A stretch of 64,000 bases of DNA from Candidatus Woesearchaeota archaeon (GCA_016192905.1 JACPTG010000004.1:173734-237733), one strand, 5' to 3'; positions 1 to 63,902 are shown, numbered from the stretch's first letter. Made by a program: numbers and translations. Notes: generated from the letters alone by a model not told the origin.

Positions 1-592
1 GTCTTTCATTCAGGCCAATCCTGCAAAAATTGTATAAGATTTCCCTTCCATGCTCAGTCATTATTGACTCAGGATGGAACTGGACTCCGAAAATCGGGTA
101 GGACTTATGCTGGAGCCCCATAATTGCCCTGTCGTCCCTGCTGCGGGCAGTAATGGCAAGACAGTCAGGAAATGACTCCTCATCGGCAACAAGGGAGTGG
201 TATCTCATCACCCTGATATTGTTCCTGATTCCCCTGAAAATCCCCTTTCCTGAGTGCGTGATAAGGCTTGTTTTTCCGTGCATCGGCTTGCGGGCCCTTA
301 CCACCTTCCCGCCAAAAGCAGAAACTATGCCCTGATGGCCAAGGCAGACGCCCAATACAGGAATACTCCTGCCCAGCTTTGAAATAACCTCTGCGCATAC
401 CCCAAAATCACTTTTATTTTTGGGATTCCCTGGCCCTGGAGAAATAATTATCAGCCTGTAATTCCTTTCTTTAATCCTGCCAAGCGAAAGCGCATTGTTC
501 CTGACCACGTCAACATCCAGCCCAAACTCAGCCAGCATCTGGTACAAATTGTAAACAAACGAGTCAAAGTTGTCAATCAGCAGCGCCTTCAT
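1..592 (-). CDS. trpG: anthranilate synthase component II / glutamine amidotransferase (3' end truncated by window edge)
   Basis: Hand translation from rc ATG at 592: [25 protein letters not shown]...GVCLGHQG...FHPESIMTEHGREIL. This is the class-I GATase triad region. The frame stays open to position 2. The track ORF 180..398 is in a different frame. Confidence 0.85.
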   Translation of the reverse strand, partial: MKALLIDNFDSFVYNLYQMLAEFGLDVDVVRNNALSLGRIKERNYRLIIISPGPGNPKNKSDFGVCAEVISKLGRSIPVLGVCLGHQGIVSAFGGKVVRARKPMHGKTSLITHSGKGIFRGIRNNIRVMRYHSLVADEESFPDCLAITARSRDDRAIMGLQHKSYPIFGVQFHPESIMTEHGREILYNFCRIGLNER

Positions 593-1941
593 TTGTTTAC
601 CCCCATCACACTGAGCAATGCCGCTGCCTTTGCCTCGGTCTCCTCAAACTCCCTTTCAGGGACGCTGTCATAGACAATCCCTGCGCCTGCCTGCAAAAAA
701 GCCCTGTTTTTCACTGCAAACAATGTCCTTATGCAAATCGCAAAGTCCACATTCCCATTGCTGGAAAAATAACCCACTGCACCACCATAAGGCCCTCGCC
801 TGTCACGCTCCAGCTGCGAAATTATCCCAATCGCCCTAATCTTTGGCGCGCCGGAAACAGTCCCTGCAGGAAAAATCGCCCTGAACGCATCAAAGCCGGC
901 CATTCCCTTTTTTAGCCTGGAGCAGACAAGGGATGCCATGTGCTGGACGTGCGAAAATTTCTGAACTCCCATCAGCTCAGGAACCGAAACCGAGCCTATA
1001 ACAGACACTTTTCCAACATCGTTCCGCGTGAGGTCAACAAGCATAAGGTGCTCTGCCCTCTCCTTCCCGTCTGCCAGCAGTTCCTGCTCAAGCCTCAGGT
1101 CTTCCTCTGCGGAATTCCCCCTTGGCCTCGTGCCAGCCAATGTCGCATAGCTGGTGATATCCCTGCCCTCAACCCGAATCAGGTTTTCAGGGCTTGCCCC
1201 TATAATTTTCCTTTCACCAAACTTCAGGCAGTACATGTAAGGAGAGGGGTTTATCTGCTTCAGCCTTGGATAAATGGTGAAGATATCACCTGAAAAGTTT
1301 ATTTCATACCTTCTGGAGATTACAGCCTGGAAGATCTCCCCGGAAACAATTGACTCCTTCACCTTCTTCACCTTTCTGCAGAATTGCTGCCGTGACATGC
1401 CTGGCTTTAGGCTTACAACCCTGAATGGCTTTTCCCCATGCGTTTTCGCTGCGAGCATTTGAGCAATCCGTGGATACCTGTTCCTCGCCGAATAGACGTA
1501 CCTTGCCTCTTTTTTCAGGTGGTCAAAGACTATTACATCGTCATAAATCCCGAACTCAAAGTCAGGGAAAAGCTGAGCTCCCTTCTGAGGCTGAATTTCC
1601 TCAAGGCTCCTGACAAAATCAAAAGAAAAATAGCCAACCCCGCCTCCAACAAAGCCTTCTGAAGCCAAGCAATTCCTGCGTAAGTTGGCCTCCAGGTCAC
1701 GAAGAGGATCATTGGTAACCGACTTCTTTCCATTCACATAAATGAAACCCCCTTTGAATACGATGTGCCTTGCCGGGCTGAATCCAACAAAGGAAAACCT
1801 GGCCAGTTTTTCGTTCCCCTCACAGCTTTCCAGAAGAAAAGCATTTTTGAATTTCCTTGAAATGGATGAAAAAACATCTGAAGGGCTAAGTTCTGGATTA
1901 AGGGCAATCTGCCCTGGAGCGCTATTTTTTTTTGCAGTCAT
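589..1941 (-). CDS. trpE: anthranilate synthase component I (chorismate-binding enzyme)
   Basis: 450 aa. Chorismate-binding motifs present (…GAVGYFS…, …[26 protein letters not shown]…). Its stop abuts the trpG ATG. Confidence 0.88.
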
Positions 1942-2159
1942 CAGGCCTGCCTCCTGAAATAAAGCTTCCTTCTCAGGTCAGAAGGAACTGGCTCCTCTGC
2001 AAGAAGCCCGGCCTGCAGGAGCAGCTTCAGGGAACACTTGATGCCCCGCCTGGAAAGCCTGGTTTTTTCCGCAATGAAGCCCTGCGTTAAACCAGCTTCA
2101 TAAGATAAAAATACTTCAAGAATCCTAAGGCAGGAACGATTCAGGCCACCGGCAACCAA
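1941..2159 (-). CDS. small winged-HTH protein (putative regulator), TTG start
   Basis: 72 aa. The segment RSCLRILEVFLSYEAGLTQGFIAEKTRLSRRGIKCSLKLLLQAGLL matches the helix-turn-helix pattern of MarR/ArsR/Lrp N-domains. The stop and the trpE ATG overlap as TGATG. No ATG start, and the RBS is weak. Confidence 0.4.
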   Translation of the reverse strand: MVAGGLNRSCLRILEVFLSYEAGLTQGFIAEKTRLSRRGIKCSLKLLLQAGLLAEEPVPSDLRRKLYFRRQA

Positions 2160-2293
2160 CTCTTGAAACTTCTGGAGTGGAATCTAACTTAGAAACTAAA
2201 GCCTGCCTTCCAAAGGCAACCACCACTCAACGTCGCATTCATAGAAATACAGAATGGCAGGCTTGCTTAAATACCTTTTGGTAGGGGCAAAAT

Positions 2294-2557
2294 TCAGCCC
2301 CTGACATAAAGGAATTCTGTGTTCCTTAGCGGATCTCTCAACAAAATAGCTTCCTCCCTGCCCTCAGCACGGCCATAAAAAGTTGTTGCAGTCACACCTG
2401 ACGGAAGCCCGATTTCCCTCATATAAAAAGGCAAACCATTTGCCCGGTCAAGTGTTGCAAGAAGCGCACGCTGCTCCCCCTCTTCCCTGCCCGTCACCCT
2501 AACATAGGGAGGCTGGAAAGCCCCTAAAAACCTGTCAAACCCGTTAAAATCAGCCAT
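2294..2557 (-). CDS. small protein, paralog 1 of a tandem triplet (unknown function)
   Basis: 87 aa, MADFNGFDRFLGAF… It is preceded by TTGGAGGTAGATTGAAATGGCTGA, the same RBS and start context as the next two ORFs. A G/C hairpin lies downstream. Confidence 0.5.
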   Translation of the reverse strand: MADFNGFDRFLGAFQPPYVRVTGREEGEQRALLATLDRANGLPFYMREIGLPSGVTATTFYGRAEGREEAILLRDPLRNTEFLYVRG

Positions 2558-2583
2558 TTCAATCTACCTCCAATCAGCTAAAC

Positions 2584-2832
2584 TCAGCATTTCAGCAAAT
2601 AATTCCTCACATAGAGGGCTTCACCAACAGCCACAGCGTAGACATCCTGGCCAGCATAAACAACGGCGCTCCTCGCGGCGTCCGGGCCAATGCCCTCCAG
2701 TCCAGTGGCTCCCAAAAGGCCTTCAGGCAATCCTACCGACTCTTCAAGCCTCATGTCATGCTCTACAAGTTTTAGCAGAGATTCAGCGCCCCAACCGCTG
2801 GCCTTAAAAAAACCTTCCATACTATCAGCCAT
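2584..2832 (-). CDS. small protein, paralog 2 of the tandem triplet
   Basis: 82 aa, MADSMEGFFKASGWGA…LL.L…GLPEGL. Shares the MAD..GF..G.A and LL..L…GLP.G pattern with paralog 1. Upstream context is the identical TTGGAGGTAGATTGGAATGGCTGA. Confidence 0.5.
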   Translation of the reverse strand: MADSMEGFFKASGWGAESLLKLVEHDMRLEESVGLPEGLLGATGLEGIGPDAARSAVVYAGQDVYAVAVGEALYVRNYLLKC

Positions 2833-2934
2833 TCCAATCTACCTCCAAATCATATTTTGTAATTGTTATCAGAGCGAACATACAGCGACCTTTGCTGCCC
2901 GCCATCCATGTAAGTCTCAGTAAACAGCAGAGCT

Positions 2935-3102
2935 TCAGGGACACCGTACGTCATTGAAAAAGGCTGTTGCAGAAGTTGCAACTCCAGGACGCTTGTCAGC
3001 AACAAGCGCCACTGCACCTCTATACTCCCTGCCCATATACAAATCCAGCAGCGCTTGCAAATCGCCGTCAGCTGCCCTCACATATCCCCTGATGTCATCC
3101 AT
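2935..3102 (-). CDS. small protein, paralog 3 of the tandem triplet (55 aa, below the ORF-track cutoff)
   Basis: Hand translation: MDDIRGYVRAADGDLQALLDLYMGREYRGAVALVADKRPGVATSATAFFNDVRCP*. Upstream TTGGAGGTAGGTTGAAATGGATGA matches the other two. The LLxLYMxxEY segment resembles LLATLDRANGLPFYMREIG of paralog 1. Confidence 0.45.
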   Translation of the reverse strand: MDDIRGYVRAADGDLQALLDLYMGREYRGAVALVADKRPGVATSATAFFNDVRCP

Positions 3103-3339
3103 TTCAACCTACCTCCAATACTTCTTTATCCTCACATCTGAAAGGTCAAATGACTCTGAGACTGCACCTGAAGTTACCAGATTCTTCAGGCTATACTTGA
3201 CTGAACGAACAGAAAGGCCGGTAGCCAGAACAATTTCCCTTTGCGTAACTGGACTTGAACCAATAACCCTGAAAACCTTATTGCAAGACCTAGAAGACGA
3301 GTTGCCTATGACAAAGGTAATCGCCTTTTGACATAAAAA

Positions 3340-3362
3340 GAAAAGCAGAGCCTGAAATTTAA
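3340..3362 (-). promoter_or_regulatory. BRE/TATA promoter (GCAAAGTATTTAAA on the minus strand) driving the small-ORF/trp block
   Basis: rc reads gcatagcaaagtatttaaatttcag, about 240 nt upstream of paralog 3. The same 14-mer occurs upstream of the gene at 46760..47038. Confidence 0.4.
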
Positions 3363-3401
3363 ATACTTTGCTATGCGTGCAATATTGCCTTGGCGCCGCT
3401 T

Positions 3402-3478
3402 AGGTCGAGTAGCCTGCGCCTGCAGTGAAAGGGCGAATGCTCGACAGGCAGCTATCAGATAGAACCCTTTCACTGCCT
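3402..3478 (-). terminator. two adjacent stem-loops overlapping the tktC stop (putative terminator/RNA structure)
   Basis: GCAGTGAAAGGG(…31 nt…)CCCTTTCACTGC is a 12-bp stem. Next to it is GGCGC(…)GCGCC. Both sit just before the internal promoter. Confidence 0.35.
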
Positions 3479-4411
3479 CAGCGCCTTCTTTCCAACAGCC
3501 CTCTTGACCGCAGCTGCAATGTGACCCGGGCTCAATCCGTATTTCTCGTAAAGCTCCCCTGGCTTGCCTGACTCTGCGAAAACATCCTTAACGCCAACCT
3601 TCTGGACAGGGATAAGACTATCGTTCTCATTAAGAACATCTTGGACAGCAGAGCCAAGGCCTCCTATTATGCTGTGGTCCTCTGAAGTGACAACCGCCCT
3701 GGTTTTTGAGGCGTATTCAAGAACAAGGCTTTTGTCTATTGGCTTTATGGAGGAAATGTTAACAACAGCAGCCCTTATGCCTTCCTTCTCCAACTGCTCT
3801 GCAGCCTTAAGCGACTCAGAAACCATTGTGCCGCATGCAAAAATTACAGCGTCTGCACCCTCACGCACAACATAACCCCTGCCAATCTCAAAATTATGGG
3901 AATCATCATAAAGCGCTGGAACAGGAGCGCGGGACATCCTCATGTAAGCAGGCCCAATATGCCTGTAAAGAGCCTCAACTGCCTTTTCAGTCTGAACAGA
4001 ATCAGCAGGGACAAGCACAACCATGCCTGGAAGGGCCCTCATAGTTGCAATGTCAGTAATCTCCTGCGCTGTAGGGCCGTCCTCGCCTGTGGCAAGCCCT
4101 GCATGGCTGCCTACAAGCTTCACGTTCAATTTTGAATAACACACTGATACAAAAATCTGGTCATAAGCGTTCCTTGTAAGGAAGCACGCAAAGCTGGACG
4201 CAAAGGGCTTTTTTCCGCAGGTGGCAAGGCCTGCCCCAGTGCAGACCATGTCAGCCTCTGCAATGCCCATAGTGAAGAAACGGTCAGGGTATTTTTCGCC
4301 GAACTGGAGGCTCCTGGTTGAATCCTGCAAATCTGCGTCAAGCACAACAACGTCCCTGTCATCAGCAATCTTCAGCAAACCCCTGCCATAGCCATCCCTG
4401 GAAGCTTCCAC
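3470..4411 (-). CDS. transketolase, C-terminal (pyrimidine-binding) subunit
   Basis: 313 aa. …FTMGIAEADMVCTGAGLA…VGSHAGLATGEDGPTAQ… This is the split archaeal-type tkt. Confidence 0.9.
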   Translation of the reverse strand: MEASRDGYGRGLLKIADDRDVVVLDADLQDSTRSLQFGEKYPDRFFTMGIAEADMVCTGAGLATCGKKPFASSFACFLTRNAYDQIFVSVCYSKLNVKLVGSHAGLATGEDGPTAQEITDIATMRALPGMVVLVPADSVQTEKAVEALYRHIGPAYMRMSRAPVPALYDDSHNFEIGRGYVVREGADAVIFACGTMVSESLKAAEQLEKEGIRAAVVNISSIKPIDKSLVLEYASKTRAVVTSEDHSIIGGLGSAVQDVLNENDSLIPVQKVGVKDVFAESGKPGELYEKYGLSPGHIAAAVKRAVGKKALRQ

Positions 4412-5269
4412 CTACATCGCCTCCACTTCAGCCAGCGCCTGCCTCAGCTGCTCAGCGTTTGGAGCCTTCCCATGCCATGAGGAAACATTCTCCATGAAGG
4501 AAACGCCCTTGCCCTTGACTGTCCGGGCGATGACAACCTTCGGCCTGCCCCTGATTGTCAATGCCAGGTCAAAAGCGTTGCAAAGCTCCTGCACATCGTG
4601 ACCATCCACCTCGGACGTATGCCATCCGAAGGCTGCAAACTTCTCAGCAACAGGCTCAATCCGCATCAGCTTCTCAGTCGGGCCGTTCTGCTGCAGGCCA
4701 TTCCTGTCTACGATGGCTATTACATTATCAAGCCTGTAATGGGCAGCTGACCTTGCAGCCTCCCATACCTGGCCCTCCTGAAGCTCGCCGTCACCCATTA
4801 CCACATAAACATCGTATGGCTTTCCATCAAGCTTTCCTGCCAGGGCCATTCCATTGCCAACAGACAAGCCCTGGCCAAGGCTTCCAGTGCAGACATCAAT
4901 TCCCGGAGTGTAGATGCTGGAGTGGCCCTGAAGCCTGCTGTTCAGCTGCCTGTAGGTTTTGAGATCTTCCTTTGGGAAAAATCCAGCCTCTGCCATTGCC
5001 GCATATAATGCAGGTGTTGCATGCCCTTTGCTCATGACAAAACGGTCCCTGTCAGGCCACTTAGGATTCTTGGCATCAAACTTCATCTGACGGAAGAATA
5101 ATACGGAAAGAATTTCAGCAGCAGACAAAGAGCCGCCAGGATGGCCAGAGCCAGCCCTGTTGGCCATTAAAAGACTTTGCAGCCGGATTTCCTTTGCAAA
5201 CGCCCTGAGCTCTTCCGGAGTCCTCATATTTACAGGCAGGTCCATGGGTGAGTAAATAAAGTTTGTCAA
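4412..5269 (-). CDS. transketolase, N-terminal (TPP-binding) subunit
   Basis: 285 aa. GHPGGSLS…SKGHATPALYA…VVMGDGELQEG…DRNGLQ. Directly adjacent to the C-terminal subunit. Confidence 0.9.
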   Translation of the reverse strand: MTNFIYSPMDLPVNMRTPEELRAFAKEIRLQSLLMANRAGSGHPGGSLSAAEILSVLFFRQMKFDAKNPKWPDRDRFVMSKGHATPALYAAMAEAGFFPKEDLKTYRQLNSRLQGHSSIYTPGIDVCTGSLGQGLSVGNGMALAGKLDGKPYDVYVVMGDGELQEGQVWEAARSAAHYRLDNVIAIVDRNGLQQNGPTEKLMRIEPVAEKFAAFGWHTSEVDGHDVQELCNAFDLALTIRGRPKVVIARTVKGKGVSFMENVSSWHGKAPNAEQLRQALAEVEAM

Positions 5270-6090
5270 AAATCCTTTCCTTTTGGATAGGAGCCTAAAA
5301 TCTTCATGAACAACGCGTTTTTCCTCAGCTCAGCAATTGCATTCTTTACCTTTCCATCTTTAAGAGAGCCCTCAAAATCAAGGTAAAACATGTATTCCCA
5401 CTTTTTCCCTTTCATTGGCCTTGAAACGAGCTTTGTCAGGTTAATGTTGTTTTCCGCAAGTCCCCTCAGGCTGCAGTACAAAGAGCCGGGGGTGTGCTTT
5501 ACACTGAATACCACTGAGGTCTTTAATTCCCTGCTGCCCGCAACTCCCTGCTCCCTTGCCACAACAAAGAAGCGTGTTGTGTTGCCACTGTCAGTCTCTA
5601 TCCGCTTTCTTAGCATCTTCATGCCGTATATCTCTGCCGCCAGCTCACTCGCAACAGCAGCCTCCTCCTTATTCCCCCTTTCCTTTACTATCCTAACAGC
5701 GCCTGCCGTGTCATATTCCTCAATCCTCTGAATACTGTTCCTGTCCAGGAATTCCTGGCTCTGGACGAGGGCCTGTGGATGGGAATACGCCCTCCTGATA
5801 TCTTTCAGGCCAGAGCCCTTCTGCCCAATCAGGCAGTGGTGCACAGGAAGGTATTCCTCACCACAGACCACGAGGTTTTTTTCAAGGAGCAGGTCATAGT
5901 TCTCATTCACGTCTCCAGCAGTGCTGTTCTCCACAGGCACCATTCCGTAAGCTGCGTGACTTCTTTCCACCCTCTCAAAAAGCTCCCTGAAAGTCCTGCA
6001 GGGGGAAGTTTGCACTTTCCTGCCGAAATGGTTGAAGGCTGCAAGCTCGCTGTATGCGCCGTGCTCGCCCTGGAATGCAACGTCATCCAT
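5266..6090 (-). CDS. pheA: prephenate dehydratase with C-terminal ACT domain
   Basis: PDT motifs present: AYSELAAFNHF, TRF. ACT tail present: VVFSVKHTPGSLYCSLRGLAENNINLTKL. Start taken at the internal Met (MDDVAFQGEHGAYSE), just after the tyrA stop. The track start at 6129 would overlap tyrA by 47 nt. Confidence 0.82.
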   Translation of the reverse strand: MDDVAFQGEHGAYSELAAFNHFGRKVQTSPCRTFRELFERVERSHAAYGMVPVENSTAGDVNENYDLLLEKNLVVCGEEYLPVHHCLIGQKGSGLKDIRRAYSHPQALVQSQEFLDRNSIQRIEEYDTAGAVRIVKERGNKEEAAVASELAAEIYGMKMLRKRIETDSGNTTRFFVVAREQGVAGSRELKTSVVFSVKHTPGSLYCSLRGLAENNINLTKLVSRPMKGKKWEYMFYLDFEGSLKDGKVKNAIAELRKNALFMKILGSYPKGKDF

Positions 6091-6787
6091 TTTTGCCTGC
6101 CAGTTCCATAATCCTTTTTCCAAAGCCAATCAGTGCAGGCCTTGCAAACCTGTTATAGCGAAGCATGTCCAAAAACAGCTGGTAAGAGTCACTCTCAACC
6201 CTCTCCTTAATGCCTGCCATGAGTTCAGAATTCATGGTTTTTATCTCCGGCGCGCCAGAAGGAAACGACCGGCCAATTGCATGGATAAGAGCAAGCGAAA
6301 AGGCAGCCTGCCGGTCATGCTCCTCAGGCGTGGTTTCCATTACCCTGAGCCCGAGCCCGGCCATGAAATCCTTAACCTTCTTAAGCCTTGCCTGGCTTAT
6401 CCTTACAGGGCATAAAACTATTCTCCTGCTCCCAGGCCTGCTGTAGCTGTCAGGCCCGAACAATGGGTGAGTGGAAATCAAATCAGCCTGAGGCAGCCCC
6501 TTGCGCAATACACCAGCAGGATATTCCTTTACAGAGCACACGTCCATAACAAGGGCTCCTTTCCTGACATGGGGCCTTATCTGCCTGACAGCATCCTCAA
6601 GAGAGGATGCGTGGACACACAGCAATACGATGTCAGACGCTGCTGCTTCCTCTAATGTGGCTGTGCATTCTTCACGCTTCAAGTCATAGACTAATGTCCT
6701 GAAGTGCCGGCTCAGCAGCCTTTCAGCCAGCCTTCCAAACCTTCCACGCCCGATTATTCCAAGGCTTTTCTTAGCTGCCTTAACCAT
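6083..6787 (-). CDS. tyrA: prephenate dehydrogenase
   Basis: 234 aa. N-terminal Rossmann motif (LGIIGRGRFG); STHPLFGP; PDH domain. Confidence 0.82.
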   Translation of the reverse strand: MVKAAKKSLGIIGRGRFGRLAERLLSRHFRTLVYDLKREECTATLEEAAASDIVLLCVHASSLEDAVRQIRPHVRKGALVMDVCSVKEYPAGVLRKGLPQADLISTHPLFGPDSYSRPGSRRIVLCPVRISQARLKKVKDFMAGLGLRVMETTPEEHDRQAAFSLALIHAIGRSFPSGAPEIKTMNSELMAGIKERVESDSYQLFLDMLRYNRFARPALIGFGKRIMELAGKNG

Positions 6788-7835
6788 ACGCCCTCTGCCT
6801 GAGAAGATGGTCTACCAGAACAAGGGCAACCATTGCCTCAACCACAGGAACCGCCCTTGGACAGAGGCACGGGTCAAACCTTCCCTCTGCCTTCAGCTTT
6901 TCCTCCCTTCCTGCCCTGCTTATTGTCTGCTGCTCCTTAGCTATTGATGAAGTGGGCTTTACTGCGGCCCTTACGATTATGTCCTGGCCGCTTGAAATCC
7001 CTCCAAGAATCCCTCCTGCGTGGTTTGTGGAGAATCCTGATTTTTTTATCGCATCGTTTGCCTCTGAGCCCTTCATCTCAGCAAGCCTGAACCCGTCACC
7101 AATCTCAATACCCTTAACCGCGCCTATGCTCATAACTGCCTTTGCAAGGTCTGCACTCAGCTTGTCAAAGGTCGGCTCGCCAAGGCCTGCGGGAACTCCT
7201 TTTGCAACAACCTCAACTATGCCTCCGACTGAATCGCCTTCTGCTTTTGCAGCCAGAATAAGCTTTTCCATCTCCAACGCCTTTTTCCTGTGGGCAGCCC
7301 TTACAGGGTTCTTCTCTGTCTCGCTGTAGTCTATCTCGCTGTCCTCCAGCCTTATCCTGCCCACCTGCCTTGTGAAACCAATAACACTTATACCTTCCTT
7401 TTCCAGGACTTTCTTTGCGATTGCAGCTGCCGCCACGCGGCCTACCTGCTCCCTTGCCGAGCTCCTTCCGCCACCCCTCCAGTCCCTTATGCCATATTTC
7501 TTTTCGTAAGTGTAGTCAGCGTGCCCTGGCCTGTACAGCTCCCTGAACTTCTCGTATTTGGCCGAGTCTATATCCTCATTCATCACCATTATGGATATAG
7601 GGGCTCCTGTAGTACGGCCTTCGAAAACTCCTGACATTATAATGGCCTTGTCCGCCTCTTTCCTTGGAGTCGTGACTGCACTCTGGCCAGGCCTTCTCCT
7701 GTCAAGGTCTTTCTGAATGTCCTCTTCACTTACTTCCAAGTTTGGCGGGCAGCCATCTATGACAACACCCACGCCTTTCCCATGAGACTCGCCCCATGTT
7801 GATATCCTGAACATCCTTCCGAAAGTGCTGGTCAT
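6780..7835 (-). CDS. aroC: chorismate synthase
   Basis: 351 aa. FGRMFRISTWGESHG…GRSSARE… are canonical AroC motifs. Confidence 0.92.
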   Translation of the reverse strand: MTSTFGRMFRISTWGESHGKGVGVVIDGCPPNLEVSEEDIQKDLDRRRPGQSAVTTPRKEADKAIIMSGVFEGRTTGAPISIMVMNEDIDSAKYEKFRELYRPGHADYTYEKKYGIRDWRGGGRSSAREQVGRVAAAAIAKKVLEKEGISVIGFTRQVGRIRLEDSEIDYSETEKNPVRAAHRKKALEMEKLILAAKAEGDSVGGIVEVVAKGVPAGLGEPTFDKLSADLAKAVMSIGAVKGIEIGDGFRLAEMKGSEANDAIKKSGFSTNHAGGILGGISSGQDIIVRAAVKPTSSIAKEQQTISRAGREEKLKAEGRFDPCLCPRAVPVVEAMVALVLVDHLLRQRAYG

Positions 7836-8350
7836 TGTTTCACCCTTGCGTGCTTTAAAAAGCCGAGTATAATCCGCGCAGCCTCCTGAGGGCTTGCTTC
7901 TGAAGTGTCAATAACCACATCCGCAATCCCAAAGTATCTCTTCTCCCTTTTCCTCAAAACCTGCCTTATCTCAGCAACCGCGCCCTTCCCGGTAATGGAC
8001 GGCCTGCCACTGCCAGCTATCCTTGAGGCAATCACTTCACTGTCAGCAGTCAGGAGAATAACCAGATTTTTTTTCCGGTCAAACCTTATCCTGCTTTCTG
8101 TAAATGCGCCGCCTCCGGTCGCAACCACAGCGCGACCTGACCTCAGGGCAGCCCTTACCGCCACTCTTTCCAGAGACCTCAGCCTTTTCCACCCTGATTT
8201 GGCCACCAGCTCAGGAATGGTCATTTTTGCAAGCCTCTCAACCTCATCATCAGTGTCAATGAACCTGGATTTAAGCTTTCTTGAAAGAATTTTCCCAACC
8301 GCAGTCTTGCCAACACCCCGGTATCCTGTAAGAACTATGTTCATCAGCAA
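7832..8350 (-). CDS. aroK: shikimate kinase, bacterial P-loop (AroK/AroL) type
   Basis: 172 aa. Walker A (LTGYRGVGKTAVGKIL), ATGGG, and an AroK-like layout. It is not a GHMP-family kinase. Confidence 0.82.
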   Translation of the reverse strand: MLMNIVLTGYRGVGKTAVGKILSRKLKSRFIDTDDEVERLAKMTIPELVAKSGWKRLRSLERVAVRAALRSGRAVVATGGGAFTESRIRFDRKKNLVILLTADSEVIASRIAGSGRPSITGKGAVAEIRQVLRKREKRYFGIADVVIDTSEASPQEAARIILGFLKHARVKQ

Positions 8351-9612
8351 AGCCTCTCAAGCTCCCTGAAAAAATCCGGGAAAGTCTTTGAAACACACTC
8401 AGCACCCCTAATAACCATGCCCTTCACTGCAAGCCCTGCAATGGCAAAGCTCATGGCCATCCGGTGGTCATTGTAAGTTTCAATGGCAGAACCTTTCAAA
8501 TGGCCTGGTTCTATTTGGAGCCTGTTTTCAGTCTCAGTTACCTTTGCCCCCATCTTTCTCAGTTCTGTTGCCGTTGCCCTAATCCTGTCAGTTTCCTTTA
8601 CTCTAAGGTTGCTTATGTTCATTATACTCGTCCTTCCATTTGCAAAGGCTGCAACGACTGCCAAGGTCTGTGCAGTGTCAGGCATGCTGTTCATGTCAGC
8701 AACTATCCCCTTGAGGCTGCCGCCTTGGACTTCTATCCAGTCCTTGCCTTTCCTTACCCTGCAACCCATCTTTCCAAGCAGGTCAGGGAATTTTGCATCG
8801 CCCTGCACGCTTTTCGGGTTTACCCCTGTTACCTTTACCCTTCCCTTTGTCACTGCGGCTGCAGCGAAAAAGTATGATGCGTTGCTAAAGTCGCCCTCCA
8901 CAAAGTAGTTTCTCGCTGAGTATTTTTGGCCGGATTTCACTGACAACTCCCTGTAGTTCCTGTTGGAGGCCCTAATACCAAATGCCGTCATTGAGTCAAT
9001 CGTCATATCAACGTAGGGCTTTGAAGTCAGGTCTCCTGTAATTTCTATCTGGACATCATTATCAGCGTATGGGGCAACCATGAGCATTGCGCTCAGGTAC
9101 TGGCTGCTTAATGAACCATCTAAATTTGCCTTTCCCCCTTTCAGCCTCCTGCCCCTTACAGTCACAGGCGGAAAACCATGACTCGTCTTTATCTCTGCGC
9201 CAAGCTGCCTCAGCCCCTCCTCCAAGTCGCCTATCGGCCTTTGCCTCATTCTTGCTTCCCCGTCAATAATGGTGCGGCCTTCTGCCAATGTTGCCGCGGC
9301 TGCGATGAACCTTACTGTAGTTCCGGAGTTGCCTGCGAATATGGTTTTCTTAGGAGCCGCCATAGCTTCCGGCTTCCCTTCAACAGCGATTGTCCCACTG
9401 TTCTGGCCTATCAGTGCGGCATTAACCCCAAGCTGTTTCAGGGCGTTTATCATGTGCCTGGTGTCATCGCTGTCAAGGCAGTTGCTCAGCGTTGACCTGC
9501 CATCCGCCAGGGCTGCTATCATTAGTGCCCTGTTTGTGAAGCTCCTTGACCTTGGGCAGCCGATGCTCGCGTTTAGTTCACCTTCACATACAGGCTTCAC
9601 AGAGATTTCCAT
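8344..9612 (-). CDS. aroA: 3-phosphoshikimate 1-carboxyvinyltransferase (EPSP synthase)
   Basis: EPSPS fold repeats present: …LGNSGTTVRF…, …RPIGDLEEGLRQLGA… Start chosen at internal MEISVKPV. Confidence 0.9.
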   Translation of the reverse strand: MEISVKPVCEGELNASIGCPRSRSFTNRALMIAALADGRSTLSNCLDSDDTRHMINALKQLGVNAALIGQNSGTIAVEGKPEAMAAPKKTIFAGNSGTTVRFIAAAATLAEGRTIIDGEARMRQRPIGDLEEGLRQLGAEIKTSHGFPPVTVRGRRLKGGKANLDGSLSSQYLSAMLMVAPYADNDVQIEITGDLTSKPYVDMTIDSMTAFGIRASNRNYRELSVKSGQKYSARNYFVEGDFSNASYFFAAAAVTKGRVKVTGVNPKSVQGDAKFPDLLGKMGCRVRKGKDWIEVQGGSLKGIVADMNSMPDTAQTLAVVAAFANGRTSIMNISNLRVKETDRIRATATELRKMGAKVTETENRLQIEPGHLKGSAIETYNDHRMAMSFAIAGLAVKGMVIRGAECVSKTFPDFFRELERLC

Positions 9613-11054
9613 AAAGATTCCCTCATTATTTCTATCGGAGCTTTTTTGCCGGTCCACAGCTCAAACTGGCCGGTTGCCTGGTGAAGGAGCATTGCGAGGC
9701 CGTCCACTGTCATGCAGCCGGATTCTTTTGCCTCTCTTAACAGCCTTGTTACAGGCGGCTTGTATATAACGTCCATGACGACACCCCTCAACTGCGCTTT
9801 CGGGACAGGGGTTTCGCCATCATTTGGGCTCATTCCAACAGTGGTGCAGTTTATCAGGATGTCGTATTCCATCTTATCCAGGTCGCTTATCGGGCCATAG
9901 CCACACCCAAGCTTTTCCGCAACCTGCCTGGCCCTCTCCACAGTCCTGTTCAGGATGAAAAGCCTGCAGCCTTCCCTTGACAGCTCGAACGCAACTGATT
10001 TTGCAGCCCCTCCAGCGCCGATGATTACTACGACTTTGCCCTTAATGGCGGTCTTTTCCAAAAGCGCCTTCTTCGCGCCCATGCCGTCAGTGTTGTGCCC
10101 AATAAAGATGCCGTCCCTGACTGAAATCGTATTCACAGCGCCAATCTTCCCGGCGTTTTCATCCATGCTGTCAAGATGCCTAATTACCTGCTCCTTGTAG
10201 GGCGTTGTTACAGAAAACCCGGCAGGGTTCAGCTTCCTGATTTCACCAAGGAAAGCAGCCAGATTGTCAACCTCGAATTTCATGTGCACGAAGTTAAGGC
10301 CCAATTTCTCATACACAGGGTTGAACATGAAGAAGCTCCTGCTGTACCTCGCAGGCCTTCCGATAGTGCCAAGAATCCCTGTTTTCCGGTTCAGCCTATC
10401 AGCCCTGTAAACATCCTTCATAAGCGAAAACTGAATCTGCCCTGTAGCAGACTCCATTCCTGAATCAAGGGCGGCATAGGTGAGAAAAGAGCCAAACACC
10501 CTGTAAAGAATCCTGCTAAGCTCGCCCTTCTCCCCCATGCAAACAGCTATGAAAGGCGTTTTCAAATCCTTCACAGACTCAAACATGCGGATATTGTCAA
10601 CTATGTCATTTGCAAAAGTGGCGACCTTGGCAATATCGCAGCCAACGCCTTCCAATTCGGCAAAAATCCTTCTTATTTCCCCTATGTCAGCCGGAGTCTC
10701 TTTTAGGTTATGGAAGGAAACAATCAGCCTGCAGCTTCCCCTGCCGTCCGCCAGCATCTTAATCGAATCCGAGCCGCTGCTAAGCTCCACATCAACATAA
10801 TCTGCGCCAAGGCTTATGGCGTCCTTAAGCAGCGCTATCCTTTCGTCCTCGCTTCCCCTGTAAAAACCGCCCTCCTCCTTTTTCCTGCAAGTCACTATAA
10901 CCTGCTTTTTCCTGGCGCTGAGCAGCCTGCCAAGCCTTGGGCTTTCCATGCAGTCAATCCTGAGCTCAATTATGTCTGCACCCCTTGCCGCCGCTGTTTC
11001 CATACAGTCCAGGGCTTCCTGCTCAGTTTTCGCTGTTATGGGGATGCATATCAT
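9597..11054 (-). CDS. bifunctional 3-dehydroquinate dehydratase (type I) / shikimate dehydrogenase fusion
   Basis: 485 aa. The N-terminal half is type-I DHQase: ICIPITAKT…GADIIELRIDCM. The C-terminal half is SDH: …HNTDGMGAKKAL…VVIIGAGGAAKSVA…. Confidence 0.85.
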   Translation of the reverse strand: MICIPITAKTEQEALDCMETAAARGADIIELRIDCMESPRLGRLLSARKKQVIVTCRKKEEGGFYRGSEDERIALLKDAISLGADYVDVELSSGSDSIKMLADGRGSCRLIVSFHNLKETPADIGEIRRIFAELEGVGCDIAKVATFANDIVDNIRMFESVKDLKTPFIAVCMGEKGELSRILYRVFGSFLTYAALDSGMESATGQIQFSLMKDVYRADRLNRKTGILGTIGRPARYSRSFFMFNPVYEKLGLNFVHMKFEVDNLAAFLGEIRKLNPAGFSVTTPYKEQVIRHLDSMDENAGKIGAVNTISVRDGIFIGHNTDGMGAKKALLEKTAIKGKVVVIIGAGGAAKSVAFELSREGCRLFILNRTVERARQVAEKLGCGYGPISDLDKMEYDILINCTTVGMSPNDGETPVPKAQLRGVVMDVIYKPPVTRLLREAKESGCMTVDGLAMLLHQATGQFELWTGKKAPIEIMRESLWKSL

Positions 11055-11344
11055 CGCTGTTGTCTCCTGAGCTGCCTTTTTCTTGACTGCGCTATTATCT
11101 CCCTGAAAATGCTTTCTGTTGCCACTTCATCTATCCCCTCCAGCCTGGCAATGGCCTTAACCCTTCCAATCACTTCCTGCTCCCTTTCCAGGTCAAGCAC
11201 AGGCATGCCTGCCTTTGCCTTGTGCTCAGCTATCCTGTCCGCTATCTTGAGCCTTTTCCTTATCAGGCGTGCGAGTTCCCTGTCTGTCTCATCAATCTCC
11301 TTCCTCAAACTGTTAAGGTCATCATCAACCATTCTGCATCTCAC
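11051..11344 (-). CDS. chorismate mutase (AroQ class)
   Basis: 97 aa. LRKEIDETDRELARLIRKRLKIADRIAEHK is typical of AroQ. An internal Met at residue 5 is a possible alternative start. Confidence 0.78.
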   Translation of the reverse strand: MRCRMVDDDLNSLRKEIDETDRELARLIRKRLKIADRIAEHKAKAGMPVLDLEREQEVIGRVKAIARLEGIDEVATESIFREIIAQSRKRQLRRQQR

Positions 11345-12420
11345 CTGCTGCCGTCTATGCTTTTCCTTACTAATTCCTCGTCAACATTCCTTAGCCTGTC
11401 AACCTTTCCTATTCCACCGAGGAGAGCGTATTCTGCCTGCCTGTTTTTTGCCTTTTTGTCCAGCATGGTTTTTGCAATTATGTCGGCTGTTTTTATATCC
11501 CCAGGCACCTTAACAGGCAGCCCTGCGCGTTCCAGCAGGCTATTCTGCCTTTCTATGTCCTGCTTTTTCATCGCCTTTTCAGCCAAGCACGCTTCCACAG
11601 CCATACCTATGGATATTGCCTCGCCGTGGCTAAGCGTATAGCTGCTCAGCTGCTCCACAGCATGCCCTATCGTATGGCCATAGTTCAGGGCTTTCCTAAG
11701 CATGCTTTCCCTCTCATCCTTCATGACAATTGCAGACTTTACAGCCGCACACCTTGATATTGCCTCCATAAGCGCGTTCTTGTCCTTTGCCAGCACTTTT
11801 TCAATGTCCCTTTCAAGGTATTCAAACAGCTTTTTGTCAGCAATCATCGCGTGCTTTATGCACTCAGCCAATCCGCTGCCCATTTCCCTGGCAGGAAGAG
11901 TTTCAAGGAAGTCCAAATCTGAAAATACGGCTTTGGGCTGCCAGAAAGCGCCAATCAAATTCTTGCCATGGCGCGTATCAACGCCGGTCTTTCCTCCAAT
12001 GCTGCTGTCAACCATTGACAACAGAGTTGTAGGGACATGAATGTAAGGAACCCCCCTGCAGTAAGTTGCGGCCACAAATCCTGCAAGGTCCCCAACCACT
12101 CCGCCGCCCAAGGCTATTATGAGCGTATCCCTCCCAAACCCATTCATGATAAGCTCATCCTCAATAAGGGCTTTTGTATCGCGGCTCTTTCCTGCCTCTC
12201 CAGGCTTGATGCTCACAAGCTCTGCTGCAACATGCGCCTTTTCAAGGGCGTCCAAAACCTTCCTGCTGAAAAGCCCCTCAGTGTTGCTGTCTGTTATAAC
12301 GCACGACCTCAAGCCCATGGCCTTTGCAAATTTTGCCATTTCCTGAAGGAGCCCTGAGCCTATGTGAATGTCGTATGACTCATCCACAGCTTTTTTCAGG
12401 CTTAACCTTATTGCCGCCAT
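11341..12420 (-). CDS. aroB: 3-dehydroquinate synthase
   Basis: GGGVVGDLAGFVAATYCRGVPYIHVPTTLLSMVDSSIGGKTGV. Start at MAAIRLSL, just after the DAHP synthase stop. Confidence 0.9.
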   Translation of the reverse strand: MAAIRLSLKKAVDESYDIHIGSGLLQEMAKFAKAMGLRSCVITDSNTEGLFSRKVLDALEKAHVAAELVSIKPGEAGKSRDTKALIEDELIMNGFGRDTLIIALGGGVVGDLAGFVAATYCRGVPYIHVPTTLLSMVDSSIGGKTGVDTRHGKNLIGAFWQPKAVFSDLDFLETLPAREMGSGLAECIKHAMIADKKLFEYLERDIEKVLAKDKNALMEAISRCAAVKSAIVMKDERESMLRKALNYGHTIGHAVEQLSSYTLSHGEAISIGMAVEACLAEKAMKKQDIERQNSLLERAGLPVKVPGDIKTADIIAKTMLDKKAKNRQAEYALLGGIGKVDRLRNVDEELVRKSIDGSR

Positions 12421-12421
12421 T

Positions 12422-13435
12422 TTACAGCTTCCTGCCAACTGCCCTGGATATTTCCCTAAGCTGCTGCATCAGCTCTGCGAACTGTGCAGGCAGCAACGCC
12501 TGCGGGCCGTCACAAAGCGCCTTTTCAGGCTCGTGGTGCACCTCAATGAGCAGGCCATCAGAGCCTGCGGCCACAGCAGCCTTTGCCAAGGCCCCAACAT
12601 AATTCCGGTTCCCTGCTGCGTGGCTGGGGTCCACTATCACAGGAAGATGCGTTTCCTCCCTGAGCACAGGCACGGCTCCAATGTCCAAAGTGCTCCTTGT
12701 TGCAGTCTCAAAAGTCCTAATACCCCTCTCGCAAAGCACAATGTTGTGGTTTCCCTCCTTCATCATGTACTCTGCAGCGAGCATCAACTCCTTTATGGTG
12801 GCGCTCATCCCCCTCTTAAGAATCACCGGCTTGTCTGTCTTCCCGATTTCCTTAAGCAGGTCGAAATTCTGCATGTTCCGGGCACCCACCCTCAGCATGT
12901 CCACATATCCGGCAACCATCTCCACGTCCCTTGTGTCCATGACCTCTGTCTCAACGAGCAGCCCTGTAGCCTGCCTTACCTTCCTCATCATCCTGAGACC
13001 CTCTTCCCCAAGGCCCTGGAAATCGTAAGGGCTTGTCCTGGGCTTGAACGCAGAGCCCCTTAATATCTTTGCGCCAGCTGCCTTCACTTCCTTTGCAACG
13101 GCCATGAGCTGCTCCTCGCTTTCTATAGCACAGGGACCTGCAATAACCACGATTTCCTCTCCCCCGATTTCCACCCCGCCGACATTCACAACAGTCCCCT
13201 CAGGCCTGAACTTCCTGCTTGCCATCTTGTAGGGCTTCATTATGGGAGTCACGGCGAGCACGCCACGCATGCTCCTGAACCCGTTCACACCAATTCCCCT
13301 GGTATCACCTATCACGCCTACGGCAAGCGTTTCAGCGCCCCTGTGTATGTGCGCCTGAAACCCATGCGCCCTAATCCTATCAACGACCCTGTCAACATCA
13401 GACTCGCTTGCGTTCTGGTCCATCATAATAATCAT
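12422..13435 (-). CDS. DAHP synthase, class I-beta (KDO8PS-like) with N-terminal regulatory domain
   Basis: 337 aa. The N-terminal ~70 aa form a ferredoxin-like/ACT-like domain, followed by …IAGPCAIESEEQ…KPRTSPYDFQGLG…DPSHAAGNR…. Confidence 0.86.
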   Translation of the reverse strand: MIIMMDQNASESDVDRVVDRIRAHGFQAHIHRGAETLAVGVIGDTRGIGVNGFRSMRGVLAVTPIMKPYKMASRKFRPEGTVVNVGGVEIGGEEIVVIAGPCAIESEEQLMAVAKEVKAAGAKILRGSAFKPRTSPYDFQGLGEEGLRMMRKVRQATGLLVETEVMDTRDVEMVAGYVDMLRVGARNMQNFDLLKEIGKTDKPVILKRGMSATIKELMLAAEYMMKEGNHNIVLCERGIRTFETATRSTLDIGAVPVLREETHLPVIVDPSHAAGNRNYVGALAKAAVAAGSDGLLIEVHHEPEKALCDGPQALLPAQFAELMQQLREISRAVGRKL

Positions 13436-13686
13436 CTTGCATCACTCTCCATGATTCATCGGATATGGTTAAACCACTGACTGGAAAAAACTGTGCGCCC
13501 GCCTTATCTTGCCAGGTTTTCAGCAGGCGAAATCAATACCAGAAATAAAAGCTAAAAGAATCAGATGCACTTCCGCTGACTACAGACCTTTTCATTATAC
13601 AGCATGGGAGCAGACGCATGTATTTAAAACTTTCTCCAAGCGAAAGTATTATAAAGTAATACTAAATCATACTTTTCAGTGGTCTT

Positions 13687-14817
13687 ATGAAAATAGGCCT
13701 CCCAAAGGAAATAAAGACAGGCGAGAATAGGGTAGGCTTAGCTCCTGAAGGCGCGGCTGAGCTGACCAGGAATGGCCATACTGTGATAATTGAGTCTTCT
13801 GCAGGAGCAGCGTCAGGGTTTCCGGATTTAGAGTATGCCCAGGCTGGCGCAAAAATAGCTGAAAATGCCTCGCAGGTCTGGGAAGGCTCGGAAATGGTAA
13901 TCAAGGTAAAGGAGCCGCTTGAGTCCGAGTTCAAATACCTGAGAGAGGGGCTAATACTGTTTACCTACCTTCACTTGGCAGCAGAGGAAAAAGTCGCAAA
14001 GACGCTTCTTGACAAGAAAGCAATTGGCATAGCGTATGAGACAGTAGAGCTGGATGACGGCAGCAAGCCAATGCTCAGGCCAATGAGCGAAGTGGCCGGA
14101 AGGATGGCTGTGCAGATAGGCATGCACTATCTTGAGAGGACAAACGGCGGCTCAGGCAAGCTGCTTTCAGGCGTAACAGGAGTAAATCCCGGAGTTGTAA
14201 CGGTAATAGGCTCAGGGGTTGCAGGAATGAATGCTGCAAGAATAGCACATGGAATCGGGGCGCAGGTCATCGTGGTAGGCATAATAGAAGAACAGCTTAA
14301 AAGGGCGGCATCACTGCTGCCTGGGATAAAGACCCTGCACTCCACAGCAGAAAACATAGCTGCGGCGGTTGCTTCAAGCGACCTCGTAATCGGCTCAGTG
14401 GCTGTAACCGGAGCATCTGCACCCAAACTGGTAACCAGGCAAATGGTCAGCAGAATGCGGCCAGGCTCGGTGATAGTGGACATAAGCATAGACCAGGGAG
14501 GCTGCTTTGAGACGTCGAGGCCAACCACCCATGCAGCTCCTGTCTATAAAGAGGAGGGAGTCACCCATTACTGCGTGACGAACATGCCAGGGGCTGTCCC
14601 GAACACATCAACAACAGCCCTGACAAAGGCAACGCTGCCATACGCGCTGAAAATAGCAAACGAAGGCCTGGCCGCGCTGCAGGACGAATACATTGCAAAG
14701 GGCGTCAACACGTTCCTTGGGAAGCTAACAAACAAGCAGGTCGCAGAGGCGCTGAAAATGGAGTACGAGCCGCTTCAAACAGCCATACCGCTTGCCAGAT
14801 ACAGAGAATTGTGCTGA
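13687..14817 (+). CDS. ald: alanine dehydrogenase
   Basis: 376 aa. MKIGLPKEIKTGENRVGL…VIGSGVAGMNAARIAHGIGA… is the canonical Ald family pattern. Confidence 0.9.
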   Translation: MKIGLPKEIKTGENRVGLAPEGAAELTRNGHTVIIESSAGAASGFPDLEYAQAGAKIAENASQVWEGSEMVIKVKEPLESEFKYLREGLILFTYLHLAAEEKVAKTLLDKKAIGIAYETVELDDGSKPMLRPMSEVAGRMAVQIGMHYLERTNGGSGKLLSGVTGVNPGVVTVIGSGVAGMNAARIAHGIGAQVIVVGIIEEQLKRAASLLPGIKTLHSTAENIAAAVASSDLVIGSVAVTGASAPKLVTRQMVSRMRPGSVIVDISIDQGGCFETSRPTTHAAPVYKEEGVTHYCVTNMPGAVPNTSTTALTKATLPYALKIANEGLAALQDEYIAKGVNTFLGKLTNKQVAEALKMEYEPLQTAIPLARYRELC

Positions 14818-20397: not shown

Positions 20398-20486
20398 CCA
20401 GACTGGAAGGGGAATCTTTGTTTATAAATGTGTCTGGATTGCCAATAGAAACAATTAAATTACACCCAAAGAAACTGCACTAATAT

Positions 20487-20573
20487 ACGGCAGTGGTCAA
20501 ACGGCATGACAGGAGCTTCCCAAGGCAATGCTGCAAAAAGCTTCTAGTCCGGGTTCAATTCCCGGCTGCCGTA
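20487..20573 (+). tRNA. tRNA-Gly(CCC) with 16-nt intron at canonical position 37/38
   Basis: Acceptor ACGGCAG/CTGCCGT with discriminator A. D-arm GTCA…TGAC. Anticodon stem GGAGC/GCTTC, loop TTCCCAA. T-arm CCGGG-TTCAATT-CCCGG. The intron is AGGCAATGCTGCAAAA. A TATA (tttataaatg) lies upstream. Confidence 0.7.
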
Positions 20574-20634
20574 TGAAACTTGTCCCTTCCCGGCCTTGGG
20601 TTACCTTTAAATCCTCCAAAAGATTACCTGCCTT

Positions 20635-62212: not shown

Positions 62213-62292
62213 TTTTAAACTCCTAAATTTAAATAGTAGCTTACTTTATTTGTTATACTAAGTAGATTATTTAAACTTTGTGAGGTGGAACG

Positions 62293-62427
62293 TATGGAGA
62301 AGAGAAAACCCTGCTGCTCAGGAGGCATATGCCCTGCTTGTGAATGCTGCATATGCATTTGCACGAAGGAGTTAAAGAAAATACTCTCGCCGGAAGTGAG
62401 AAAATTGCTACTAAAGGAAATTGATTA
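62293..62427 (+). CDS. Cys-rich 44-aa peptide (8 Cys)
   Basis: MEKRKPCCSGGICPACECCICICTKELKKILSPEVRKLLLKEID*. SD GAGGTGG upstream. Divergent from hxlR. Confidence 0.4.
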
Positions 62428-62458
62428 AGGCAAATAAATTGATGATGAGTGGAAATCT

Positions 62459-63093: not shown

Positions 63094-63110
63094 TTTTAGT
63101 TAGCCCTTAT

Positions 63111-63150: not shown

Positions 63151-63158
63151 CTATATCT

Positions 63159-63891: not shown

Positions 63892-63902
63892 GAAAAGCCC
63901 CG

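Follow-up and report, generated by a model that had tools for sequence, protein, structure and literature searches.

The DNA considered here is a window of 64,000 nucleotides from Candidatus Woesearchaeota archaeon (GCA_016192905.1, JACPTG010000004.1:173734-237733), whose minus strand carries at one end a block of genes predicted to serve the biosynthesis of the aromatic amino acids. Genes were called from a listing of open reading frames (ORFs) and from profile scans against the curated thresholds of Pfam and NCBIfam. These scans bear out what a preliminary description of the window, made from the sequence alone, had proposed, namely that all seven steps of the shikimate pathway, a chorismate mutase, pheA, tyrA and both halves of a transketolase lie together on this strand (Table 1). 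The core of the block is an aro-tkt unit of eleven overlapping or abutting genes, transcribed from position 13435 to position 3470 in the order DAHP synthase, aroB, chorismate mutase, aroD-aroE, aroA, aroK, aroC, tyrA, pheA, tktN and tktC. Family calls lie above curated cut-offs for all the genes of the block save aroK and tyrA, which pass those of Pfam only. With the starts of the longest ORFs, each junction from DAHP synthase to tktC measures 0 to -61 nt, in agreement with the overlapping or abutting stop and start codons reported earlier and as expected of one translationally coupled unit.

The outline given in the preliminary description nevertheless had to be amended. Instead of being continuous from DAHP synthase to trpEG, the block is tightly packed from DAHP synthase to tktC and is then interrupted, before trpE, by an insert of ~1.5 kb (1942-3469), which parts tktC from trpE and contains small ORFs, a winged helix-turn-helix (wHTH) remnant and a MarR-like gene. 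Likewise, aroD and aroE are both present, as one fused ORF and not as separate genes. Past the window edge, trpD, trpC, trpB and trpA continue the series, as judged from the gene list of an independent assembly of the same organism (L001).

Table 1. Features of the aromatic amino-acid locus, listed in the direction of transcription
Feature	Coordinates	Strand	Supporting match or remark
Candidate archaeal promoter with B recognition element (BRE) and TATA box, GAAAGTTTTAAATAC	13618..13632	-	~185 nt upstream of DAHP synthase start; read by eye
DAHP (DAH7P) synthase, type I-beta	12422..13435	-	PF00793 287.5 bits, residues 87-328; NF006421 505.7 vs cut-off 335
aroB, 3-dehydroquinate synthase	11341..12438	-	TIGR01357 377.7 vs cut-off 305; PF01761 and PF24621 also match
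AroQ-class chorismate mutase, 97 aa	11051..11344	-	PF01817 79.9 bits; TIGR01791 'CM_archaeal' 72.6 vs cut-off 66.95
Fused aroD-aroE, 485 aa	9597..11054	-	PF01487 196 bits; PF08501, PF01488, PF18317
aroA, EPSP synthase	8344..9657	-	PF00275 422 bits; TIGR01356 455.6 vs cut-off 287
aroK, P-loop shikimate kinase, AroL-like subtype	7832..8350	-	PF01202 (SKI) 117.7 bits vs threshold 22.1
aroC, chorismate synthase	6780..7835	-	PF01264 471 bits; NF003793 483 vs cut-off 321
tyrA-family prephenate/arogenate dehydrogenase, short form, 234 aa	6083..6787	-	PF02153 60 bits
pheA, prephenate dehydratase with C-terminal ACT domain	5266..6129	-	PF00800 210.7 bits, PF01842 23.6 bits; NF008865 225.5 vs cut-off 219
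tktN, transketolase N-terminal half, thiamine diphosphate-binding	4412..5269	-	PF00456 197 bits
tktC, transketolase pyrimidine-binding and C-terminal domains	3470..4411	-	PF02779 118.6 bits, PF02780 117.4 bits
Insert at the aro-tkt / trp boundary	2294..3331	-	wHTH remnant and three small ORFs
72-aa MarR-like winged-helix gene	1941..2159	-	PF12802 MarR_2 30.2 bits vs cut-off 27
trpE, anthranilate synthase component I	589..1941	-	PF00425 296.5 bits, PF04715 93.5 bits
trpG, anthranilate synthase glutamine amidotransferase, cut by window edge	2..589	-	PF00117 200.6 bits

Host Identity and Conservation of the Locus

The archaeal origin of this DNA, implied in the preliminary description, is upheld by an archaeal RNase P RNA (RNase P_arch, 120 bits) and by the matches of RadA, and the same 64 kb also encode RadB, RPA, an A-type ATPase operon and ribosomal protein S2. 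The top 120 matches of RadA share 64-82% identity with it, and all those that bear an organism name belong to Woesearchaeota, Nanoarchaeia or Nanoarchaeota, save one '[bacterium]'. The proteins of the block are moreover exact NCBI records (MBI3052270-MBI3052283) named 'Candidatus Woesearchaeota archaeon'. As judged from one marker and from database labels, the host is a DPANN archaeon of the Woesearchaeota.

The same locus, with the same flanks (TraB, the signal-peptide peptidase SPP and PF01877) and the same gene order, recurs in the related genomes L006, L080 (recovered from a different groundwater metagenome) and L082 (GCA_053533195.1). The identity of their block proteins to those of the window amounts to 91-99% in L006 (95% for AroK), 44-89% in L080 and 44-80% in L082, and in the latter two, more distant relatives, the flanking genes are only 52-60% identical. 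For DAHP synthase, identity reaches 80% in L080 and 71% in L082, and RadA matches on the seemingly corresponding contigs stand at 81% and 80%. Six other metagenome-assembled genomes (MAGs) of Nanoarchaeota or Woesearchaeota carry the arrangement DAHPS-aroB-aroA-aroK-aroDE-aroC-(CM)-tyrA-pheA (DAHPS, DAHP synthase; CM, chorismate mutase), again with the aroD-aroE fusion.

The composition of the block resembles that of its surroundings. Between the block and the remainder of the window, relative synonymous codon usage correlates at r = 0.952; the other genes, when split into halves, give a mean of 0.943. GC content is 0.508 in the block versus 0.513 in the rest. Among 1.84 billion representative proteins, AroK finds matches below 1e-30 in two clusters only, the one to which it belongs and another at 55% identity; after these, identity is just 40-46%, so that no close donor emerges.

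Phylogenies were built by neighbour-joining. In a concatenated tree of AroA, AroK, AroC and PheA (1,209 columns, 300 bootstraps), the clade of the window and the grouping of this clade with the other Nanoarchaeota both receive 100% support, apart from the bacterial loci, and the loci of Desulfobacterota form a separate group (97%). The single-gene tree of AroK has only 1-11% support at its deep nodes and was not used for claims on origin; the trees of DAHP synthase and AroB drawn from the loci comprise three groups only and hence carry no topological information. The loci came from a scan, made with a six-sequence AroK alignment, which was confined to proteins with the motif I[VL][LF][TIV]GYRG[VA]G. 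The preliminary description had seen in the block a bacterial-like module, possibly acquired horizontally. This interpretation is only partly supported, as a foreign, bacterial character of the block finds no backing in the trees, in its conserved position in the relatives, in its grouping with Nanoarchaeota, in its host-like codon usage or in its mixed affinities. By these comparisons the locus is typical of its lineage; its affinities are partly archaeal and partly bacterial, and a transfer, if there was one, would be ancient.

The P-Loop Shikimate Kinase

In bacteria, shikimate kinases are as a rule of the P-loop type. The kinase of the block is indeed of the AroK type (GYRGVGKT) and not a GHMP enzyme, as had been proposed: it matches PF01202, lacks a GHMP domain and has a length of 170-172 aa, the ATG at 8344 giving 170 aa. 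Its Walker A motif GYRGVGKT (residues 9-16) fits GxxGxGK[TS], and in an alignment of 20 homologues the columns of G12, G14, K15, D34, R58, E61, R116-P117 and R135 are invariant and the GGG loop 79-81 is nearly so. Asp34, Arg58, the GGG loop, Arg135/136 and the Arg-Pro of the lid are what we take to be the ATP- and shikimate-binding sites in the structures from Mycobacterium tuberculosis and Erwinia. Its gene is flanked by aroA and aroC, with which it shares stop/start overlaps, and this place is kept in every related locus. Judging from its residues and its position, we are confident that aroK encodes the shikimate kinase of the pathway; no scanned ORF of the 64-kb window matches a GHMP kinase.

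Among solved structures, the closest is the shikimate kinase of Erwinia chrysanthemi (1SHK, E = 4.8e-23, 84.9 bits). With this enzyme and with Escherichia coli AroL (shikimate kinase II), the window kinase shares the Walker A motif, D34, R58, the GGG loop and the AroL-like signatures 'GW..(F)R' and 'RP(S/T)(I/L)TG', the latter in the lid. It differs, however, in that the alignment with 1SHK is limited to residues 5-152, with many substitutions, in that F57 is replaced by L, and in that its score stays under the NCBIfam AroL cut-off (124 vs 161). The best matches of AroK include archaeal ones, from Candidatus Altiarchaeum hamiconexum (45%) and from AroK-AroE fusions of Methanocalculus (46%) and Methanoregula (41%), together with the bacterial Tectomicrobia and Jacksonbacteria. 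An aroE-aroK fusion occurs in 42/55 Methanomicrobiales assemblies (PMC11237513). The P-loop kinase is the one clearly bacterial-style part of the block, yet it is not unique among archaea, and an archaeal P-loop shikimate kinase alone is no evidence of recent bacterial transfer.

In L080 and L081, a 345-aa ThrB-like GHMP kinase is encoded at 8722-9759, 240 bp upstream of DAHP synthase and on the same strand. Considered as a second shikimate kinase, the L080 protein was rejected, as thrB models are the only ones it matches (thrB 90.5 bits, against a cut-off of 168) and the window has no such gene.

Canonical Entry into the Pathway

Regarding the entry into the pathway, the canonical enzymes named in the preliminary description were recovered: a type I-beta DAHP synthase with an N-terminal domain and AroB both score above their NCBIfam cut-offs, and neither ADH synthase nor DHQ synthase II (PF01959) was seen among the scanned ORFs of the window. 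Residues 1-67 of DAHP synthase form a ferredoxin-like (FXD/ACT-like) domain (PF18152, 63.6 bits). The protein aligns with Thermotoga maritima DAH7P synthase (1RZM) collinearly, without gaps and over the full length (358.7 bits), and it has identical residues (C, H, E and D) at the positions of T. maritima C102, H272, E298 and D309, the metal ligands of that enzyme. Given this common domain architecture, seen in 1RZM and 3PG9, the enzyme is most likely subject to feedback inhibition by Tyr and Phe through its N-terminal domain, as in T. maritima.

The catalytic barrel itself is only 53% identical to that of T. maritima, below its identity to the archaeal barrels of Pyrococcus furiosus (60%) and Aeropyrum pernix (61%), and the bit scores against the PDB chains agree with these values. 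Identity further amounts to 64-65% with Firmicutes, 59-62% with Syntrophales and 64-68% with other DPANN, and to 59-66% overall with bacteria besides T. maritima. By these values, DAHP synthase is not diagnostic of an archaeal versus a bacterial origin.

Inheritance of the Block and Alternative Explanations

We consider it highly probable (about 85%) that the block is an aromatic amino-acid supra-operon of Woesearchaeota (DPANN), stably inherited by vertical descent in its clade, sharing its ancestry with the clusters of other Nanoarchaeota and not recently acquired, its deeper origin being either archaeal or bacterial. Several observations weigh against this interpretation. AroK stays under all the NCBIfam equivalog cut-offs, not only that of AroL but also those of PRK13947 (134 < 204) and AroK (55.5 < 195), and TyrA does likewise (108 vs 310). 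The trees are neighbour-joining trees from loci preselected by an AroK peptide motif, which biases the taxa, and save for two PDB chains of DAHP synthase they hold no 'classical' archaeal sequences. The view of the genome is that of 64 kb, an aromatic aminotransferase, trpF, a GHMP kinase or the ADH route elsewhere lying outside its scope. According to a published survey of Woesearchaeota, not even subgroup J, with its rich biosynthetic repertoire, has a complete aromatic pathway (PMC8421398). Finally, the closest GTDB genome, L006 (CAZDCW010000020.1), is labelled 'uncultured Methanosarcinales archaeon', at odds with RadA.

A host among the Methanosarcinales was rejected, since RadA matches Woesearchaeota and Nanoarchaeia and no methanogenesis gene lies in the 64 kb, and the title of L006 is likely a taxonomic mislabel. 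The same conflicting label could be taken as the sign of an assembly or binning artefact, in which a bacterial fragment was joined to archaeal sequence; such a chimera is improbable in the extreme, as the archaeal RNase P RNA, RadA, RadB, RPA, the A-type ATPase and S2 share one contiguous 64-kb stretch with the block, and several samples and assemblies yielded these junctions independently. It is also very unlikely that the P-loop gene encodes another kinase of the same fold (a SKI-family homoserine kinase as in Desulfovibrio, a gluconate kinase or a cytidylate kinase) and that the true shikimate kinase is a GHMP enzyme encoded elsewhere. Although the failure of AroK to reach any shikimate-kinase cut-off of NCBIfam, its weak matches to hom_kin_desulfo (67.7 bits), CMP kinase and gluconokinase, the change of F57 to L and the ThrB-like GHMP kinase directly upstream of DAHP synthase in L080 would suit such an exchange of roles, shikimate-kinase models (134, 124 and 112 bits) score far above any alternative, competing Pfam kinase families reach only 20-33 bits, the shikimate-binding residues are all kept, and all related loci have the gene inserted, with stop/start overlap, between aroA and aroC. 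The GHMP protein of L080, for its part, is matched by thrB models, the archaeal shikimate-kinase family giving no match at E <= 0.01, and it has no counterpart in the window. As for a recent horizontal gain of a bacterial module by the window genome, which could account for the P-loop kinase and the bacterial-like gene order, it was rejected on the grounds of synteny, codon usage and the lack of close bacterial homologues, and we hold it to be highly improbable. Position, flanks and order have indeed been kept in relatives whose flanking genes have diverged to 52-60% identity, relatives with a DAHP synthase at 80% and 71% identity seemingly have RadA matches at 81% and 80% on the same contigs, neither codon usage nor GC sets the block apart from the host, and among 1.8 billion proteins no near-identical bacterial homologue turned up, the best AroK match outside the clade being at most 46% identical.

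An ancient interdomain transfer is possible because the gene order nearly matches that of Syntrophales. According to this scenario, the ancestor of Woesearchaeales/Nanoarchaeota would have gained the aro operon, with its aroA-aroK pair, aroD-aroE fusion and FXD-type DAHP synthase, from a bacterium akin to Syntrophales/Desulfobacterota and passed it on vertically thereafter; we give it an appreciable, if minor, chance. In Syntrophaceae/Syntrophales (L034, L035 and L052), the order is DAHPS-aroB-CM-pheA-aroD(E)-aroA-aroK-aroC-tyrA, only pheA being placed differently from the window, and the position of aroA before aroK, which departs from pathway order, is common to both. That P-loop kinases are the rule in bacteria also speaks in its favour, as does the fact that AroA, AroC and AroK of the window are as similar to those of Desulfobacterota (47-57%, 56-59% and 38-43% identity, respectively) as to those of other Nanoarchaeota (41-46%, 52-56% and 35-41%), or more so. 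Matches of DAHP synthase at 59-61% identity, moreover, include Firmicutes, Deltaproteobacteria and Omnitrophica beside Diapherotrites, and Huang et al. infer that the genes for amino-acid biosynthesis which subgroup J of the Woesearchaeota acquired are of bacterial origin (PMC8421398). However, the direction of transfer is not readable from an AroK tree with 1-11% support at its deep nodes, and the concatenated tree sets the DPANN clusters apart from Desulfobacterota (97-100%) and does not nest them within that group. The barrel of DAHP synthase is as close to Pyrococcus and Aeropyrum as to bacteria, the chorismate mutase fits the archaeal model, split transketolases are typical of archaea (PMC11237513), and the preselection of loci by the GYRG[VA]G motif biases which bacteria appear.

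A more elaborate version can be put forward only tentatively, and we regard it as less likely than not: the Woesearchaeota clade would be prototrophic for all three aromatic amino acids, its ancestor having captured a Syntrophales-type aro operon with a P-loop aroK, an aroD-aroE fusion and a feedback-regulated DAHP synthase, and having joined it to an archaeal split transketolase, chorismate mutase and trp genes. If true, this would be a case of metabolic re-expansion of a reduced symbiont lineage through operon-scale interdomain transfer. Vertical inheritance within the clade, with an ancestry shared with other Nanoarchaeota, remains the reading adopted in what follows.

Remaining Enzymes and the Predicted Pathway

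In the fused aroD-aroE protein, a type I dehydroquinase (residues 3-216) precedes a shikimate dehydrogenase (residues 231-481), and both parts exceed their NCBIfam cut-offs (TIGR01093, 155.9 > 139.3; TIGR00507, 239.7 > 200.2). The fusion is also present in L080, L082 and other Nanoarchaeota and is known from some archaea and Planctomycetes (PMC11237513). Downstream, the actual start of aroA is probably near 9612. For the chorismate mutase, the 'archaeal' TIGR01791 is the best and only NCBIfam model passed. The tyrA orthologues of L080 and L082 also match PF26213. Regarding the transketolase, a split enzyme has been found in 441 archaeal assemblies, and bacteria have the fused enzyme (PMC11237513).

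The mechanism is that of the textbook shikimate, Phe/Tyr and Trp pathways, to which a supply of erythrose-4-phosphate (E4P) is added, the activities of the individual proteins being predicted from their families. The split transketolase would supply E4P, which the metal-dependent type I-beta DAHP synthase would condense with phosphoenolpyruvate; AroB, the fused AroD-AroE, the P-loop AroL-like kinase, AroA and AroC would then carry DAHP to chorismate. From there, the AroQ chorismate mutase, the ACT-regulated PheA and the short TyrA are expected to lead to phenylpyruvate and 4-hydroxyphenylpyruvate.

Proposed Transcription Units and the Tryptophan Genes

Besides the candidate promoter upstream of DAHP synthase, boxes of the form AAAG..TTTAA(A), also read by eye, are located at ~3355-3370, upstream of the group of small ORFs, and at ~2265-2280, upstream of the MarR-like gene. 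By their sequence they are candidate BRE/TATA-like elements, and from their positions upstream of DAHP synthase, of the small ORFs and of the MarR-like gene we infer three transcription units rather than one. Scans for sigma-70 promoters and intrinsic terminators were disregarded, as their models are unsuited to an archaeon. The eleven-gene unit of ~10 kb would probably start at the box near 13625, and a separate downstream unit would make tryptophan, with a small MarR-like regulator at its head that is translationally coupled to trpE. On the other side of DAHP synthase, upstream and in opposite orientation, lies an alanine dehydrogenase gene (13687-14817), at the place taken in L080 by the ThrB-like kinase.

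The insert between the aro-tkt and trp genes holds the MarR-like winged-helix remnant (~3120-3331, minus strand), which has no usable start codon and lies upstream of the three small ORFs, likewise on the minus strand and of 55 aa (2935-3102), 82 aa (2584-2832) and 87 aa (2294-2557). Each of these stands behind the same leader, TTGGAGGTAG(A/G)TTG(A/G)AATG, which contains GGAGG and provides a ribosome-binding context. None of the 55-, 82- and 87-aa ORFs has a significant Pfam match, and only those of 55 and 87 aa are conserved, and only in L006, the 95% relative. Closer to the trp genes, the stop codon of the MarR-like gene overlaps the start codon of trpE (cTGATG). Its 72-aa product, 94% conserved in L006 and encoded there too directly before trpE, may be the regulator of the trp unit, by analogy with the small Tar of the Thermococcus aro operon.

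Other Features of the Window

Elsewhere in the window, two genes are interrupted by inteins. The B subunit of the A-type ATPase (31385-34420, minus strand, 1,011 aa) contains a ~520-aa intein that bears a LAGLIDADG homing-endonuclease domain (residues 283-800), and the interval of 32-34 kb has the second-lowest GC content of the window (0.393); the adjoining 577-aa ORF is the A subunit, as identified by its PF16886 insert. The other intein, also with a LAGLIDADG domain, interrupts a SufB/SufD-family protein of 805 aa (21235-23652, plus strand), and beyond its gene come another SufBD gene, one for a class-V aminotransferase (SufS-like), a NifU-like gene and one for an ABC ATPase.

A tRNA at 20486-20574 (plus strand; Rfam 49.6 bits), for which ARAGORN gives a four-base 'ccca' anticodon, probably represents an archaeal tRNA with an intron, possibly tRNA-Trp(CCA). 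Two proteins of ~312 aa (41656-42594 and 56927-57862) have only an N-terminal domain of the MazE/AbrB type (SpoVT_AbrB), their other ~260 residues being without family match. Between 48410 and 56946 lies a run of ORFs without Pfam match, four on the plus strand (271, 148, 172 and 262 aa), four on the minus strand (223, 187, 419 and 327 aa) and one of 658 aa at 54970-56946. At the right end of the window (62001-64000), GC content falls to 0.365, against ~0.50 elsewhere.

Significance and Comparison With Known Clusters

DPANN archaea are usually pictured as dependent on their hosts for amino acids. At one conserved locus, the woesearchaeal clade studied here is predicted to encode the route from E4P supply to chorismate, to the prephenate-derived keto acids and to anthranilate, and its members may be prototrophic for the aromatic amino acids. 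It is thus the host that makes the locus noteworthy: a DPANN clade with an apparently complete aromatic amino-acid locus was not reported in the survey of Woesearchaeota (PMC8421398), and among DPANN from oxygen-deficient zones most Woesearchaeota MAGs are without the shikimate pathway (PMC10936187). A related cluster is present in at least six other MAGs of Nanoarchaeota. The locus refines metabolic reconstructions of the group and provides a marker to separate potentially free-living from host-dependent members.

Among known clusters, those of Thermococcales, whose shikimate kinase belongs to the GHMP family (after Daugherty et al. 2001), resemble the block in content. The aro operon of Thermococcus kodakarensis (TK0262-TK0271) covers E4P formation, as follows from DAHP synthase being called the second reaction, and the tyr-phe and trp operons are adjacent to it (PMC6737238). 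In both systems, E4P formation is grouped with a canonical DAHP synthase, with AroB and with the other steps to chorismate, the Tyr/Phe and Trp genes are adjacent, and the cluster encodes a small MarR-like winged-helix protein, the regulator Tar (TK0271) in T. kodakarensis and a candidate regulator in the window. However, Tar lies inside the aro operon, whereas the MarR-like gene of the window precedes trpE, and Thermococcales have separate aroD and aroE genes and a P. furiosus-type DAHP synthase without N-terminal domain (1ZCO, barrel only), unlike the window with its P-loop kinase, fused aroD-aroE and FXD-bearing DAHP synthase.

These latter traits recur in Syntrophales/Desulfobacterota (L034, L035 and L052; L007-9, L031 and L072), which share with the window a near-identical order, an FXD-type DAHP synthase, an AroL-like P-loop kinase with GW..FR and RPxLTG and, in L034 and L035, the aroD-aroE fusion. 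Their hosts are bacteria, however, the clusters have no transketolase, the identity of the proteins is only 37-59% and the loci form the separate group (97%) of the concatenated tree. Compared with the six other Nanoarchaeota/Woesearchaeota MAGs (L029, L040, L043, L060, L061 and L063), the window differs in the order of the genes, as these place aroA-aroK before aroDE and the chorismate mutase after aroC, have no tkt within 10 kb and show an identity of only 35-59%; they nevertheless share with it the same gene set, the fused aroD-aroE, a P-loop aroK beside aroA and an FXD-type DAHP synthase.

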